DNA of 63,874 nt, counting the filler. It is 5 parts of 5 records of this genome, joined end to end, with 100 filler letters (N's around TTAATTAATTAA, not from the genome) between each part and the next. Parts side by side here need not be neighbours in the genome. Positions count along the whole stretch, not along the records: positions 58,705 to 63,874 come from SRR31156797_14767; 4 more parts are not named here. The stretch is one strand, 5' to 3'. Below, one piece after another: positions 29,910 through 63,874 of this stretch (the first letter of the stretch is position 1; each line of letters begins with the position of its first letter). The translations under genes and the position numbers were made by a program. A model generated the notes under the pieces. That model ran no database searches, was not told where the DNA came from, and saw only the letters and a program-made list of their open reading frames with translations.

Positions 29910-30009
29910 NNNNNNNNNNNNNNNNNNNNNNNNNNNNNNNNNNNNNNNNNNNNTTAATTAATTAANNNNNNNNNNNNNNNNNNNNNNNNNNNNNNNNNNN
30001 NNNNNNNNN
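29910..30009. other. Artificial contig spacer
   Basis: N-run + TTAATTAATTAA (stops in all frames) + N-run, 100 nt; GC content and gene style change across it. Confidence 0.97.
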
Positions 30010-42263: not shown

Positions 42264-42363
42264 NNNNNNNNNNNNNNNNNNNNNNNNNNNNNNNNNNNNN
42301 NNNNNNNTTAATTAATTAANNNNNNNNNNNNNNNNNNNNNNNNNNNNNNNNNNNNNNNNNNNN
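42264..42363. other. Artificial contig spacer
   Basis: N-run + TTAATTAATTAA + N-run. Confidence 0.97.
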
Positions 42364-49171: not shown

Positions 49172-49271
49172 NNNNNNNNNNNNNNNNNNNNNNNNNNNNN
49201 NNNNNNNNNNNNNNNTTAATTAATTAANNNNNNNNNNNNNNNNNNNNNNNNNNNNNNNNNNNNNNNNNNNN
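49172..49271. other. Artificial contig spacer
   Basis: N-run + TTAATTAATTAA + N-run. Confidence 0.97.
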
Positions 49272-58367: not shown

Positions 58368-58604
58368 ATGATTATTACGTGTTCAAATTGCGAGACCAAA
58401 TTCAATTTACCGGAAAGTAAGATTCCGGCAGGCGGAGCCAAGGTTAAATGCTCCAAATGCGGAAATATTTTTAAGGTAACTCCTCCCGCCTCTGAGCCGG
58501 AAGATGAAGTTGAGTCCATGCTTGAAGAGGAGCAGTCTAAACCTGCACCGGAACCGAAACCGGAACCCAAGCCTGAACCAGAACCAGAACCGGAGCCAGA
58601 ACCG
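58368..58604 (+). CDS. MJ0042-type zinc-ribbon protein (DUF3426-like), 3' truncated, with Pro-Glu linker repeat
   Basis: MIITCSNCETKF...KVKCSKCGNIF; (PE/PK)n tract at about 58542-58604. Confidence 0.8.
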
Positions 58605-58704
58605 NNNNNNNNNNNNNNNNNNNNNNNNNNNNNNNNNNNNNNNNNNNNTTAATTAATTAANNNNNNNNNNNNNNNNNNNNNNNNNNNNNNNNNNNNNNNN
58701 NNNN
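58605..58704. other. Artificial contig spacer
   Basis: N-run + TTAATTAATTAA + N-run. Confidence 0.97.
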
Positions 58705-59342
58705 CAGGCATTCATATCCGCTAGCCACTGTTTCTGCAGGAAATAGGCGTCCCCATCGTTCTCCAGAGCTGCCGTGTCGTCAGGCAGCAGGGCGAAGAAG
58801 TCGTCCGTGTCCAGGTTGGTACTGACGCGCTCACGACGCACGTAGATATCCCAGGACGGCACGGTGGCTTCGTCTACGCTTTCCAGGTTCCACGCTCCTT
58901 GCGGGCCATGAGCGGAATGCCAGCCGTCCAGATGTTGGAGGCCATTCGGGTCGCTGTAGCCACCGGCCTTGCTGTACGTGAAGCTGCATGTGTACAGGAC
59001 CTTATTCGGATCGTCTGGCTTGGCGATATGCTCTTCTGCTTCCATCACTGGCGTCAGGACCAGAAACGCACGGCCGTTGGTTTGCTCCCAGTTGGGCCAG
59101 CCCGGCGTGGTGCCCGCGTTCGTTGGAGGCATGGAGAAAAACCAGAGCTGATTGTCATCTGTCGGGTCCGGGTCGATGGCCCGCTCGGCCGGCTGGTCCC
59201 AGTCGGCTGGACGCCACGTGGGATTGGTGCCAATATGCGTGTGTGCGACCGAGTGGGCCGCCCGGGCGGCAGTCGCCCATAGGGGCAGAACGGCCGCACA
59301 GAACGCCAATCCGAAGATTGGCAAGATGCGTCTTGCTTTCAT
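58705..59342 (-). CDS. Secreted hypothetical protein with His-rich mature N-terminus, 3' truncated
   Basis: SD GAGGGA 8 nt upstream; signal peptide ending ARA; mature start (A)HSVAHTHIG; internal HLDGWHSAHG. Confidence 0.75.
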
Positions 59343-59350
59343 CGAGATTA

Positions 59351-59387
59351 TCCCTCTAACTTCGCGTCAGGGGAAATCCCCTTACGC
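59351..59387 (-). promoter_or_regulatory. Mutually exclusive RNA hairpins overlapping the SD of the 59342 gene
   Basis: Hairpin A GCGU-A-AGGGG-AUUU-CCCCU-G-ACGC (59364-59387); hairpin B UCCCCUGAC-GCGAA-GUUAGAGGGA (59351-59374) covers the SD. Confidence 0.55.
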
Positions 59388-59499
59388 TCGAATGGTCGAT
59401 GTTGGGCATACGGGGCCGGCTTTGCTGTATCGGCGCCAAGCGCGCGCAATGCAACTCAGATCGGCACTTGTTGCCTACGTCGTTGTGTCCAGGGGGGTG

Positions 59500-59796
59500 T
59501 TATGCGGGCGGTGCGCGCGGGTGAAACCGACTGGGCGAAGTCTGGCAAGAGAGGATGCTCGGGCGGGCCGAAACAAGGTGCCCGACCGAATCGATCTCGA
59601 TATCCGCCGGCTCCAGGTCGACCGCGTAGTCTTTCTTGGAGATAGCGAGTTGCTGGCACAGGGAACAATGGGCTCCGTCATGCTCGTCATGCTCGTCGAC
59701 GTGGGCCAGATGCAGATGCAGCGTGACTCCGGAGGTCATCGCCAGGAAGCAGATGGTCCCCAGGGTCAGAAATGCCGTTTGCATACGCCGATTCAT
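59500..59796 (-). CDS. DUF2946-like (CruR/CutF-type) small protein, putative ribosome-arrest leader
   Basis: N-terminal hydrophobic helix, HLHLAHVDEHDEHDGAH, CSLC, C-terminal PRAPPA*. Confidence 0.8.
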   Translation of the reverse strand: MNRRMQTAFLTLGTICFLAMTSGVTLHLHLAHVDEHDEHDGAHCSLCQQLAISKKDYAVDLEPADIEIDSVGHLVSARPSILSCQTSPSRFHPRAPPA

Positions 59797-60239
59797 GCCG
59801 TTTGCCTTTCTTCCGTCTCATGACACGCCGGACAGATGCCTTCAAGCCGGACCTGCTGCCGACTGATAGTGAATCCCTTGTAAGGGCTTTCGGCCATGGG
59901 CATCGAAATGCCTGTCAGACAGTGCGTTTGCCCGCAGTTCAGACACGTGAAATGCGGGTGACATTGGGTTTCGCTGCAGTGGTGGGCTAGTTCGAAATGC
60001 CAGGCCCGCTCGTGCATGAAGGCGCGATGGACCAGGCCCACCTCCACCAGGGATTCAAGCGTTCGATAAATCGTGACCTTGTTCAGATTCCTGCCGGCCA
60101 ATTCTTCGGCGATCTGGTTCTGACGCAGCGGATGGGATGTCTCCATGAGCACCTTCAAGATCGCAATGCGCGCTTCGGTGCAGTACAGATCCGTCTGCTT
60201 GAGCATCCGCCTGACCTTGTCGTCAAGTTCCGCGTTCAT
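59793..60239 (-). CDS. Fur-family metalloregulator (Zur/Fur-like)
   Basis: T.ARIAIL, VTIYRTL..L...GLV, HPHFTCLNCG, GICPAC; start 60239 in ATGA overlap with upstream stop. Confidence 0.9.
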   Translation of the reverse strand: MNAELDDKVRRMLKQTDLYCTEARIAILKVLMETSHPLRQNQIAEELAGRNLNKVTIYRTLESLVEVGLVHRAFMHERAWHFELAHHCSETQCHPHFTCLNCGQTHCLTGISMPMAESPYKGFTISRQQVRLEGICPACHETEERQTA

Positions 60240-61024
60240 GACGAGACCTCTGGCTTGCACGGGTGGTGTGTACACAGCGGTGCGGATTTGACGAAAAGGA
60301 GCGGGAAAACGATATCACTAATGCAACAAGGCAGCCAGACCGCGATGAACAGGACTACGAAGACACCGACGAACATCGTTGGTGTCAACTCTCGATGTGT
60401 GTTCATCAGAACATGGAACGAGGAGGCCCATGTGCTGATCAAGACGTGGCCGGCGTGGGGGAATTTGGTCCGCGGCCAGAACCAGGCGATGATGATGCCC
60501 AGGATTGCCGCTGGGTTGACTACGTACCAGTCCTCGATGAACCCCAGGTGCAATCGTTCCCGAATATTCGCCGCTGGCGCGCCTGATTCAGTCTCGGTGG
60601 CATGCGCCTGCCCCTCATGGTCGTGCCCGTCGGGTTCCAGGGAATGGTCGTGAGCGTCCATTTCGGCTTCGGCGTCGTGATCGTGCATTGCCCCGTGGAT
60701 GGGCACGGCGACGTCGAGAATGGTTTCGCCGAAGAAGGGCAGTACGCAGTCGCTCACCGTGGCGACCCCGATGGCTCCCAGATGCCCGATCACCACGATC
60801 TTGAGCAGGCTGGCATGCTTGTCGTACAGTTTGAACAGCGAGGCCGTGACGATGGCCGAGAGAACCACGTGCGCCGGGTGAAACACCTGAAACAGCCGGT
60901 GGTTGACCTCAGGTCCGGCGTTCCTGAACAGGAGCATACAGACAATTCCGGTGGCAGCCCCGACGAGCGTAAATGGAGCATGGTGCTTGAGTTCCGCAAG
61001 GATGGCGCCGAACCTGTGTTGCAT
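60236..61024 (-). CDS. His-rich polytopic membrane protein, putative metal permease
   Basis: About 6 TM helices; HHAPFT, FHPAHV..S, HAGHV..S..AS, PCCISD; central HDHDAE..HDH..DGHDHE loop. Confidence 0.7.
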   Translation of the reverse strand: MQHRFGAILAELKHHAPFTLVGAATGIVCMLLFRNAGPEVNHRLFQVFHPAHVVLSAIVTASLFKLYDKHASLLKIVVIGHLGAIGVATVSDCVLPFFGETILDVAVPIHGAMHDHDAEAEMDAHDHSLEPDGHDHEGQAHATETESGAPAANIRERLHLGFIEDWYVVNPAAILGIIIAWFWPRTKFPHAGHVLISTWASSFHVLMNTHRELTPTMFVGVFVVLFIAVWLPCCISDIVFPLLFVKSAPLCTHHPCKPEVSS

Positions 61025-61100
61025 TTTCTTGTACTCCCTGAAAAGCGAGTCTATGGCCGTTACATCAACTACGACCCATTATAGGAGCGGGGTGGGGAAA

Positions 61101-61117
61101 ATGCAACTAAGTTGCAT
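61101..61117. promoter_or_regulatory. Perfect palindromic operator, candidate Fur-family box
   Basis: ATGCAACT-A-AGTTGCAT in the AT-rich divergent intergenic region, 77 nt upstream of the permease-Fur operon. Confidence 0.7.
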
Positions 61118-61269
61118 ATTTTTTCTGCGCGGCTTTGTTTTGTAGGCTTTAGATATAACTGGGCGGCGTCAGGACCATATCGCTGGGCCCTGCGCGGTGA
61201 TAAGGGACTGTCCGTCGAAGTCCGCATAAACACGCAATCGGGGGTGTGGTATTTTGAGAAAGACGCATT

Positions 61270-61983
61270 GTGATCTCGACGCTTGATAGAGCAATCAGTG
61301 AGTCTCCGGTCTGGGCTCTGTTTATCGTGTTCTGGATCGGGGCGATCGCATCGTTGAGTTCGTGCACGGTGATTCGCCTACCGATCGTGATGGGCTGCGC
61401 GGGCGGTCCAGGCACCTCAAAGAAACGCGGCGTCGCTCTGACGATCCTCTTTTCTTTGGGCTTGGTCATCAGCTACGTCCTGCTGGGATCGATTACGGCG
61501 TTTACCGGTGGGGTGATCCACAAGGTTCTGGTTCTGAACAAGTACCTCTTCTGGATCCTGGGGATTGCCTTGTTCGGCGCCGGGATATGGATCTCAGGCC
61601 TAACGAGTCTGCGTGCGTCATGCGATCAGTTGCAGGGCATCGGGGACCGCTTGCAGAAGAAAGGGGCGGTACGAACGCTCCTCCTGGGGATCTTCTTTGG
61701 CTTGCTGGAGACCCCGGCTTGCCCCTGCTGTGGCGCCGGGCTCCTCGTCCTGGCGGGGGTCGTGGTGGCCAAGAACCTGTCGTATTTCGGGCTGTTGGTA
61801 TTCGCGAGTTTCGCCTTGGGCCAAAGCGTCCCCGTACTGGCGATTGGTATTGTGACAGGCTTGGTGAAACCCGATTTGATCCGTCGAGTGCGAACACGCG
61901 TGTGTTCGATCGAACAGAAAATGCAGTTGATCGCTGGCAACGTGCTGATGGTCCTCGGCATCTACCTCATTGTTGTCGGTTAA
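61270..61983 (+). CDS. Cytochrome c biogenesis CcdA / DsbD-type transmembrane thiol transporter
   Basis: About 6 TM helices; SLSSCT...LP and TPACPCCG Cys motifs; FSLG, FALG. Confidence 0.75.
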   Translation: MISTLDRAISESPVWALFIVFWIGAIASLSSCTVIRLPIVMGCAGGPGTSKKRGVALTILFSLGLVISYVLLGSITAFTGGVIHKVLVLNKYLFWILGIALFGAGIWISGLTSLRASCDQLQGIGDRLQKKGAVRTLLLGIFFGLLETPACPCCGAGLLVLAGVVVAKNLSYFGLLVFASFALGQSVPVLAIGIVTGLVKPDLIRRVRTRVCSIEQKMQLIAGNVLMVLGIYLIVVG

Positions 61984-61993
61984 CAGGTGTCTT

Positions 61994-62602
61994 ATGGACA
62001 ACGGGCAGATTGTCTACTCGAAGCGTCGCGAGCGTGAGCATGCGGTCAAAGAACTCGTGGCCAAGGGGTCATATAGTGTCATCATCGTCGTGGTGGCCTT
62101 GATCGTGATACGGCCGCTGATGGTCAAGCAACTGCTCAATCGCGCCAGTGCGTATTCCGCCTTTGGGCTGTACGACGAATCCAAGCGCCAATGCGACAAA
62201 GTCCTGTTGCTGGACAGCGACAACAGCCAGGCATGGTACAATCTGGCCCGCATCTACAAGATTCAGGACCATTTCGATCTGGCGTTCGGATCTTACCTGA
62301 AGGCGACCGAGATGGATCCTGGCAACATTCCCGCCCAGTTCGAACTTGGGATGATGTACGTGCGCGACGGCCGACATCAGCAGGCGATTCCACACTTCGA
62401 TCAGGTGCGTCGACACCGCCCGGACTCGACGCCTTCGTCATCAAAGGCGGCCTTTCCCTATCACAAATCGTCTCTGGACATGTTGCTTCTGTGCTACGAG
62501 AAGGCGGGCGATCCTGGCAAGGTGGAATTCACCCGTGAGGAGATGCGGGTCTTTTATCCTCACCACACACCGTCGGGCGGCGGTGCGGCCCAATTGAACT
62601 AA
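61994..62602 (+). CDS. Membrane-anchored TPR protein
   Basis: N-terminal TM helix; TPRs (AWYNLARIY, AQFELGMMY). Confidence 0.8.
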   Translation: MDNGQIVYSKRREREHAVKELVAKGSYSVIIVVVALIVIRPLMVKQLLNRASAYSAFGLYDESKRQCDKVLLLDSDNSQAWYNLARIYKIQDHFDLAFGSYLKATEMDPGNIPAQFELGMMYVRDGRHQQAIPHFDQVRRHRPDSTPSSSKAAFPYHKSSLDMLLLCYEKAGDPGKVEFTREEMRVFYPHHTPSGGGAAQLN

Positions 62603-62891
62603 CGTCTGAGCGAGTGCCTGAGGTTCCGGGCGCGACAGGCACCCACGTCTCCCAACGGCCTCCGGTCACGCTGTGCCGGCGCCCCGCAGTTTCTCTGCGC
62701 GTTCCCCCACGATATCTTGATTCTTCCTGTTTTGCCCGGGAAAGCCGTTGCGTCTGCACCGTTGCCGGATACACTCTGCGTTGGGGTCACGTGACCTGAG
62801 AGGGTCGCAGCCCTCTTGCGGCCGGCAGGACCCTCGTTCACCTGTACGGACGCGATCGGGCAACGAGCGGTTTGGAAAGGACTTCTGGACA

Positions 62892-63869
62892 ATGCAGGTT
62901 CTCACAACACTGTCGGAATTTGGACAGGTTCGCAAAGGCAGTGTGCTGACGATTGGAAACTTCGACGGGGTCCACATGGGGCATCGAGAGATTCTCCAGA
63001 AGGCCCGAAGTTTGGCGCAGGACCGTCACACCGAAATGGTTGTGATGACCTTCGAGCCTCATCCCGTGGCGGTTCTGCACCCGGAAAAGGCGCCGGGCGT
63101 GTTGACGCCGTTGCCTCTGAAGCTACACCTATTGCGCGAATACGCCGACGATTGCATCATCGTTCTGCAGGACAACCAGGAGCTGCTGAGTTTGGTCCCT
63201 GAGGATTTCGTCGACAAGTTTCTGATGGCCAGCATCGCACCGGGGGTAATCGTCGAGGGGGACGACTTCCATTTCGGAGCTCAGCGGGCCGGCGACGTGG
63301 GCACGCTCCGCGAGTTTGGTGCTCAAAAAGGTTTCGACGTGGTGGTGGTACCGCCCAAACAGATCGAATTGCCCACCGGTCAGCTGCTGCGCGTCTCAAG
63401 CACGGTGGTTCGCTATATGCTCGAAGCCGGCCACGTCGCCGAGGCGGCCACCGCGCTGTCACGTCCCTACCGTCTCATGGGACCGATTGTCTCAGGCTGG
63501 GGGCGGGGCCGGAAGCTCGGCTTTCCAACACTGAACATGGGCAAGCCCGAGCAGATCATTCCGGCCGAGGGCGTTTATGTCGGGTCTGTAGAACTGGCAG
63601 AGAGCCATGCGGCCCTCCTCGGGAAGACCGAGCGTTTCCCGGCGGTGTTCAGCATTGGCGAGGCTCGAACCTTTGGCGATCAGTACCCACTGTTGATTGA
63701 GGCTCATCTGCTCGATAGGACCGTGCCGGATATGGAAGGCCATTGGATGGCGATGGACTTCATCCGCCATCTACGTCATCAGCATAAGTTTGGCAGTTCG
63801 GAAGCACTGGTGAAACAAATTGAAAAGGATTGTCAGCAGGCCAGGGGCGTGCTGAAGGAACTCTCGTAA
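62892..63869 (+). CDS. ribF: Bifunctional riboflavin kinase / FAD synthetase
   Basis: IGNFDGVHMGH, TFEPHP, GDDFHFG, VSST.VR, GRKLGFPTLN, IEAH; start at Met 62892. Confidence 0.96.
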   Translation: MQVLTTLSEFGQVRKGSVLTIGNFDGVHMGHREILQKARSLAQDRHTEMVVMTFEPHPVAVLHPEKAPGVLTPLPLKLHLLREYADDCIIVLQDNQELLSLVPEDFVDKFLMASIAPGVIVEGDDFHFGAQRAGDVGTLREFGAQKGFDVVVVPPKQIELPTGQLLRVSSTVVRYMLEAGHVAEAATALSRPYRLMGPIVSGWGRGRKLGFPTLNMGKPEQIIPAEGVYVGSVELAESHAALLGKTERFPAVFSIGEARTFGDQYPLLIEAHLLDRTVPDMEGHWMAMDFIRHLRHQHKFGSSEALVKQIEKDCQQARGVLKELS

Positions 63870-63874
63870 GGAGA

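Follow-up and report, generated by a model that had tools for sequence, protein, structure and literature searches.

The 157-nt spacer at 59343-59499 (minus strand) of a 63,874-nt stretch of DNA, hereafter called the window, is probably the regulatory leader region of an arrest-peptide attenuator of the CruR/DUF2946 type. Judging from its motifs, the 98-aa leader ORF (uORF) in front of the spacer probably encodes a divergent, self-stalling arrest peptide of the DUF2946/CruR/CutF kind, and we tentatively read the arrangement as Rho-type attenuation, where the C-run at the beginning of the spacer would be the end of a rut-like tract. The general idea of a preliminary description of this DNA, i.e. 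that a ribosome stalled at a RAPP motif controls the next gene via the spacer, has precedent in the DUF2946 leaders CruR and CutF. The hairpins it described are real, yet the wiring it proposed for them fails its own in-silico test.

What is new here is modest, and consists of a common Planctomycetota branch of the DUF2946 arrest-leader family, its location behind a Fur-family gene, its uncharacterised secreted His-rich targets, and signs of both known read-outs within one family. To our knowledge, it is only in DUF2946 leaders that a transition metal controls gene expression via a nascent peptide, and we know of two that have been studied so far, with differing read-outs, namely Rho termination and unmasking of the Shine-Dalgarno sequence (SD). 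With occurrence in 90 out of 301 sampled genomes of the order, and with a universal C-rich tract beside complementarity between uORF end and SD in a third of the loci, the branch constitutes a natural series on the coupling of a single arrest module to different RNA read-outs. It is also useful for asking which metal its secreted His-rich proteins handle.

Genomic setting of the spacer

The window is made up of contig pieces (1-63874) separated by N runs at 29910-30009, 42264-42363, 49172-49271 and 58605-58704, each junction consisting of 44 N, 12 bases and another 44 N. The piece at 1-29909 has a GC content of approximately 36% and the other pieces range from 47 to 59%; a single organism of origin shared by all of them may be doubted. 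The spacer sits in the last piece (58705-63874; 5.17 kb, approximately 57% GC), and the named relatives of this contig are Planctomycetota MAGs (Phycisphaerae, Sedimentisphaerales and Pirellulales). The preceding piece ends in an ORF (58368-58604, plus strand) that continues into the N spacer; its N-terminus is zinc-ribbon-like (CSNC...CSKC), and PEPK/PEPE repeats come after it.

All genes of the operon are situated on the minus strand. The first one, as visible here, encodes a His-rich membrane protein of 262 aa (60236-61024), for which no family match was found in Pfam or NCBIfam. Next comes a Fur-family regulator of 160 aa (59793-60275; PF01475 at 8.1e-11), whose NCBIfam matches all fell under their respective cut-offs. 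The uORF (59500-59796, with the stop UAA at 59500-59502) is accordingly not the first gene of the operon but follows a Fur-family gene that itself comes after a membrane-protein gene; its ATG and the stop codon of the regulator overlap (ATGA), and the gene order, with the Fur-family gene directly upstream, is identical in five relatives (L001-L005). The spacer extends exactly from the uORF stop to the next AUG (59340-59342), where the regulated gene (58705-59342), truncated by the contig end, begins. Its product, a secreted protein, carries a signal peptide and the motif AH(S/T)VAHTHIG.NPTWRP, and full-length relatives have a C-terminal tail rich in His/Asp. No Pfam or NCBIfam family was assigned to this protein, and its PDB matches were weak and dockerin-like only. 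About 1.1-3 kb past the uORF, L002-L005 contain a prepilin-type N-methyl/DUF1559 protein together with a second secreted protein with a dockerin-like motif. A DUF1559-type gene is also the first regulated gene, directly after the uORF, in L006, L031, L040 and L049, the last of which combines an RPPP motif with its DUF1559-like downstream gene.

The leader ORF and its family

The uORF product starts with a hydrophobic segment, continues with a His-rich stretch and a CSLC motif, and ends in RAPP, a single alanine and the stop. Its sole Pfam match was DUF2946 (PF11162), at an E-value of 0.0011 and with 20.2 bits, which is below the gathering cut-off of 23.7; the match covers positions 30-117 of the 117 in the profile. 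Out of 38 family members, 20 had a DUF2946 match at E<=0.01, the best being 2.3e-05; other families did not recur. The CxxC motif is encoded at 59656-59667 (C44-S-L-C47), and both cysteines are invariant in 12/12 as well as in 38/38 aligned homologues, as are H29, H39, R94, P96 and P97 over the 38 loci. RAPP is encoded at 59506-59517 by CGC GCA CCG CCC. RAPP and CxxC were invariant among the 11 database homologues. The arrest motif of the 38 distinct loci was RAPP in 23, RPPP in 11 and RSPP in four. We know of no prior test of RSPP as an arrest motif. The distance between CxxC and RAPP is 46 residues in the window and in 34 of the 38 loci, the other four having 45, 47, 49 and 49, and the spacer length varies between 88 and 202 nt across all 38. 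Taking the arrest geometry from ApdA/ApdP structures and the CruR toeprint, we expect the arrested ribosome to hold CCG (59509-59511) in its P site, with CCC (59506-59508) occupying the A site.

Genome searches started from the MAG holding L001. The uORF family was found in one out of 401 genomes sampled from the phylum (the known locus alone), in 90 out of 301 sampled from the order, and in 13 out of 276 from the taxonomic family at E<=1e-20. The 38 distinct loci were pooled from genome searches and collection scans, leaving out L010, L012-L015, L018, L019 and L021-L023 as duplicate spacers; L048 and L049 were found later and are outside this set. The matching contigs of one sequencing run, X1, were identical and may be the origin of this sequence. 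In a relative of approximately 90% identity (run X2; 59486-59509), position 59508 is lost through a 1-nt deletion and positions 59509 and 59502 are changed, which appears to remove the uORF stop and to add about nine codons after RAPP, as in homologue P0002 (RAPPHNESPNTAL). The C-run would then be coding in X2, so that the arrest site, and not the stop, would be the fixed point.

Hairpins and repeated segments in the spacer

The C-run CACCCCCCUG is located directly 3' of the uORF stop, at 59490-59499, just as had been described, and the SD GAGGGA (59351-59356) lies 8 nt 5' of the AUG, its GAG being invariant in a 10-sequence alignment. The two hairpins previously proposed were both recovered. 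Hairpin A (GCGUAAGGGG-AUUU-CCCCUGACGC, 59364-59387; GCGU.AGGGG / CCCCU.ACGC) leaves the SD single-stranded. Folded alone it adopts the structure ((((.(((((....))))).)))) at -14.0 kcal/mol, and in a 35-nt context it reaches -15.4 kcal/mol (z -3.38), with 2 out of 200 shuffles as stable. Hairpin B as first noted (UCCCCUGAC-GCGAA-GUUAGAGGGA, 59351-59374) buries the SD with 9 bp and one bulge at -11.2 kcal/mol, and can be extended to 15 bp (GGGAUUUCCCCUGAC / GUUAGAGGGAUAAUCUC, 59344-59380), burying the SD together with the adjoining spacer sequence as far as 1 nt short of the AUG. This extended hairpin B is the local MFE of a 53-nt piece, at -18.4 kcal/mol (z -3.65; 1 out of 200 shuffles as stable). 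The strand CCCCUGAC is common to both hairpins, which makes them mutually exclusive, in agreement with the earlier proposal.

The C-run region CCCCUGGAC is approximately a repeat of the shared anti-SD strand CCCCUGAC, and AGGGGAU resembles GAGGGAU. Both the SD and AGGGG are therefore possible partners of the C-run, and the two pairs of near-repeated segments make up four segments that can pair 1:2, 2:3 and 3:4, and also 1:4. A long imperfect hairpin occupies the middle of the spacer (59397-59482; -31.2 kcal/mol, z -1.75, 8 out of 200 shuffles as good). Overall, the stability of the spacer is unremarkable, with an MFE of -64.9 for 59320-59530 (z -0.75; 43 out of 200 shuffles as good). An Rfam scan of 58700-61500 at E<=10 gave no spacer match, and a single chance-level match elsewhere. 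According to a promoter/terminator scan, the spacer has neither a sigma-70-like promoter nor an intrinsic terminator; the four terminator-like sites identified are all on the plus strand, at 61101-61443. Hairpin A was also considered as an intrinsic terminator, and was ruled out by its having no U-tract.

Folding with and without a stalled ribosome

In the preliminary description, a ribosome stalled at RAPP was thought to cover the C-run and thereby favor hairpin A, with the SD opened as a consequence. Folding of 59330-59520 with and without 59485-59520 forced single-stranded gave the opposite result. In the free RNA, the probabilities of hairpins A and B were 0.76 and 0.23, and with the footprint they were 0.14 and 0.85. 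Nor was access to the SD set by the footprint, as it hardly changed: its probability of being paired was 0.69 in the free RNA vs 0.79 with the footprint, and its opening cost 3.63 and 2.82 kcal/mol, respectively. Footprints reaching +13 to +25 gave pairing probabilities of 0.68-0.76, and over all runs, which are equilibrium models, the values were 0.65-0.69 free and 0.68-0.79 with a footprint. The main partner of the SD in free RNA, where hairpin A was present at 0.83, was the C-run itself (0.50), and the shift from A to B upon covering the C-run is due to the SD losing this partner and moving to extended hairpin B. The A and B states differ little in energy (-61.1 vs -60.8) and account for 61% and 15% of the ensemble, respectively, so that their populations depend on the chosen 3' end.

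The additional suggestion that the C-run favors B by capturing AGGGG was borne out only in part, as the best B-state does pair CCC with GGG of the 5' strand of hairpin A, but masking of the C-run raises B. In these models, then, the C-run is coupled to the balance between A and B in the sense opposite to that proposed, and the equilibrium wiring as first put forward is not supported. For the window, opening of the ribosome binding site (RBS) was 1.29 kcal/mol harder with the stalled footprint. Stalled ribosomes reach to approximately +13 to +16, as known from toeprints at +16 and from frameshift spacers. A ribosome arrested at RAPP would hence cover just the first 1-4 nt of the C-run, with the pairing part outside, and the strand occluding the SD is located about 115 nt from the arrest site.

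Equilibrium folding is blind to kinetics, and a kinetic switch would restore the proposed direction, with stalling as the on state. The direct path from A to extended B has a barrier of 13.6 kcal/mol, and hairpin A remains the MFE as long as the 3' strand of B has not emerged. Together, these two properties would make A a trap, and fast closure of the SD would then occur via the free C-run alone.

Conservation in related loci

Close relatives of the window spacer are found in L001 and L007, in the more distant L008, and in the later L048. In a 4-sequence alignment, hairpin A had 80.6% of 36 cells paired with five pairs changed on both sides (slid controls 25-64%), and hairpin B likewise 80.6% with three such pairs (39-54%), both figures being biased in favor of the hairpins by the derivation of the scored structures from the window itself. 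RNAalifold on the four close sequences selected B. The local folds were no better than shuffles in L001 (z -0.77), L007 (z +0.54) and L008 (z -0.28). The structural conservation expected from the earlier proposal is thus seen in so far as close relatives have hairpins in the same position, but the high-barrier exclusivity of A and B is limited to the window and, weakly, L007. For L048, a column-wise count was discarded as the stems were out of register in the alignment, and per-sequence folds were compared instead. In this comparison, the 'SD-closed' energy was lower than the 'SD-open' energy in 9/9 loci, a result that is nearly true by construction and carries no weight. In L001, the closest genome relative, the best partner of the post-stop tract is the 5' strand of hairpin A (-16.6 kcal/mol); the same pairing ranks second in the window (-11.1 vs -11.4) and fifth in L007. 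Opening of the RBS in L001 was 3.88 kcal/mol easier with the stalled footprint. Among the 38 loci, it became more than 1 kcal/mol easier in 15 and more than 1 kcal/mol harder in 10.

A sister clade, clade B, comprises nine loci (L002-L005, L009, L011, L020, L024 and L026; alignment A4). Its consensus has a stem 8 nt past the stop and two further hairpins, the last of which sequesters the SD and is retained in 9/9. The stem (A4 columns 26-38 with 76-86; e.g. approximately 3290-3350 in L005) has one compensatory pair (GC 7, GU 1, AU 1), and its base is within reach of a ribosome at the stop codon, not of one arrested at RAPP. In clade B, the last 16 nt of the uORF, from the RAPP codons to the stop, have 13 positions of complementarity to the SD region. 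This helix has 91.5% of 117 cells paired, vs 25-48% when slid, and one covarying pair (CG 4, UA 3), and L048 has its own version of it. The duplex between uORF end and SD beats 95% of dinucleotide shuffles in 12 out of the 38 loci, while that of the window (-9.3) is no better than shuffles (fraction 0.66). For the non-core part of the helix, matched pairs scored -4.65 vs -3.86 when permuted, and 134 out of 5000 permutations were as good, which is weak given that the loci are related. A consensus structure over both clades (13 sequences) retained three pairs only, as the hairpins are in different registers. A conserved 'anti-anti-SD' was sought in clade B, where the best partners were scattered in position. 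The motif GG.GAU.U..CC.G (alignment A2; window 59370-59384, minus strand) is kept in 10 sequences from both clades, its G-rich half pairing downstream in the window clade and upstream in the sister clade, so that the sequence is kept beyond what pairing would require.

The C-rich tract and a putative Rho-type mechanism

The last 65 nt of the uORF, its stop and the C-run together form a C-rich, G-poor tract at 59490-59567 (minus strand), which resembles the 'C>G bubble' of a rut site. It contains 39 C and 15 G in 78 nt, with the C-run as its 3' end, and is the strongest 78-nt window of C over G on this strand of the 5.17-kb piece, with an excess of 30.8 points and the next best at 19.2. The tract is weakly structured (-11.6 kcal/mol, z -0.11). 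A C excess around the uORF stop was found in 38/38 related loci, with means of +24 and +19 points, and the first 30 non-coding nt of these loci hold on average 9.05 C vs 5.03 G, C exceeding G in 29/38. The rho gene was found in the genomes of all five relatives searched, in three of them above the cut-off. By its composition, the universal C>G tract fits a Rho loading site.

From the family features, the tract, the hairpins and the presence of rho in relatives, we infer the following course of events, in which the arrest, the metal concerned, the direction of control and the action of Rho are all putative. The uORF would be translated after the Fur-family gene. With its CxxC/His region metal-free, the nascent peptide would arrest the ribosome at RAPP, CCG occupying the P site and CCC the A site, and this ribosome, with any queued behind it, would occupy the 3' part of 59490-59567 and shield it as a presumed Rho loading site. 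This would let RNA polymerase traverse the structured spacer and allow expression of the secreted-protein genes downstream. Metal binding would free the arrest, upon which the ribosome would terminate, the tract would be bared and Rho would terminate transcription inside the spacer, with the long spacer hairpins as candidate pause sites. Hairpins A and B would tune the usability of the SD, and may add a translational layer.

Several points nevertheless speak against Rho. Rho terminators are not reliably predictable from sequence, and part of the C excess is forced by Arg, Ala, Pro and Ser codons. The uORF is not first in its operon, unlike nearly all cruR genes, and the downstream genes are without a known copper link. 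Furthermore, two exclusive stable hairpins, one of them burying the SD, are superfluous for a pure Rho mechanism, and the complementarity between uORF end and SD in 12/38 relatives points to translational control in this uORF family.

Alternative explanations

These last points lead over to a translational switch, a kinetic form of the earlier idea, which we regard as possible but doubtful, perhaps acting together with Rho. Hairpin A would form first during transcription and persist as a long-lived trap, leaving the SD open unless the C-run is free. A free C-run would either close the SD directly (CCCU.GAC : GUU..AGGG) or take AGGGG so that extended B forms, and a ribosome at RAPP, at the edge of the C-run, would block both closures and keep the next gene on. 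The exclusivity and individual stability of A (z -3.38) and extended B (z -3.65), the 13.6 kcal/mol barrier with A as the early MFE, the near-isoenergetic A and B states, and the C-run as main SD partner in an RNA where A stands at 0.83 are all in line with such a switch, as are the pairing of both hairpins above the slid controls in four relatives and the choice of B by RNAalifold. The strong pairing of the post-stop tract with hairpin A in L001, where the footprint also eases RBS opening, and the SD-sequestering hairpin and uORF-end helix of the nine clade-B loci argue in the same direction, and SecM and CutF serve as precedents. Against it stand the equilibrium shift in the wrong direction with SD access about equal, the harder RBS opening in the window, and a family that is mixed in this respect (15 loci gaining and 10 losing more than 1 kcal/mol). 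The pairing part of the C-run is just beyond the reach of a ribosome arrested at RAPP, the direct uORF-end duplex of the window is shuffle-like, high-barrier exclusivity is restricted to the window and weakly L007, and the close relatives number just four or five, with structures derived from the window. A more specific version, in which a free or covered copy of the C-run chooses between A and extended B during transcription and so relays the metal-sensing arrest over approximately 115 nt to the SD, we consider unlikely; such a kinetic relay could act with or instead of Rho, and could be derived from the direct pairing of uORF end and SD in the relatives.

It is also conceivable, and in our view quite improbable, that the hairpins are incidental or serve only in mRNA stability or processing, the spacer not being a sensor-coupled switch and the small protein acting after its release, e.g. 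as an exported metal-binding peptide or chaperone. Alternative hairpins arise easily in sequence rich in G- and C-runs, the whole spacer is no more stable than shuffles, the local folds lack significance in L001, L007 and L008, the two clades share no consensus structure, and the anti-SD partners vary in position. This explanation is at odds with the occurrence of RAPP or R(P/S)PP 46 residues past CxxC in nearly all loci, with spacers that are long in every locus, with the universality of the C>G tract, and with the experimental demonstration of regulation by two family members. Moreover, RAPP is described as a motif that proteomes generally avoid and that is enriched where upstream ORFs end (PMC12992588). 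Rho-type attenuation by an arrest peptide remains our preferred, if tentative, reading, and it is modelled on a known counterpart.

Comparison with known arrest-peptide systems

This counterpart is CruR (Bp2923, DUF2946), the leader of bfrG in Bordetella pertussis (Roy et al. 2022, PMC9426467). As described there, CxxC and RAPP are 45 residues apart in CruR, with a DUF2946 spacing of 45 +/- 1-2, and the RAPP-arrested ribosome prevents Rho-dependent termination in a 162-bp spacer until copper relieves the arrest. The same report maps the rut site to a 'C>G bubble starting in bp2923 and ending in IGR', gives nearly all cruR genes as first in their operon, and notes DUF2946 homologues in 'a few' Planctomycetes (PMC9426467). 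In vitro, CruR was demonstrated to arrest at RAPP, the P and A sites being occupied by the two Pro codons (PMC12992588), and this agrees with the structures reported for ApdA/ApdP (PMC10951233). The window resembles CruR in its long spacer (157 vs 162 nt), in a C>G tract that runs from the 3' part of the uORF into the spacer, in the de novo initiation of the next gene, and in having downstream genes whose products resemble metal-related envelope or secreted proteins. It differs in that its uORF scores under the Pfam cut-off (20.2 vs 23.7 bits), belongs to Planctomycetota instead of Proteobacteria, is third in the operon and overlaps a Fur-family gene whereas CruR is first, and has one residue after RAPP vs three in CruR. 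Neither are the downstream genes of the window TonB, PepSY or copper chaperone genes. Rho dependence and a copper response are putative in the window.

CutF, another DUF2946 protein, is the leader of cutO in Rhodobacter capsulatus (PMC9973294; bioRxiv 10.1101/2025.02.05.636593). In the account given in PMC9973294, a copper-prolonged stall enables the ribosome to melt a stem-loop masking the SD of cutO, and this stem-loop in the cutF-cutO intergenic region is contrasted with the long 162-nt spacer of CruR. The window shares with CutF the superfamily and the presence of an SD-burying hairpin. It differs from CutF, where the motifs are CxxxC and a Pro-rich PPP and where copper prolongs the stall, and its SD hairpin lies approximately 115 nt beyond the arrest site, so that a relay is needed.

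Outside the superfamily, TnaC, the leader of tnaA in E. coli, stalls at termination and not at elongation, with tryptophan as the ligand, and its peptide is unrelated to the window uORF. The likeness lies in a ribosome at the end of the leader peptide shielding a Rho site in a long spacer, as TnaC is presented in PMC9973294. SecM, acting on secA, and ApdA/ApdP are described as peptides that monitor Sec/YidC and are released by pulling force (PMC10951233; PMC7897499), and differ from the window also in that the latter is without a significant direct duplex between uORF end and SD. The coupling of a stalled ribosome to the next gene via a spacer is already known for DUF2946, in two versions.
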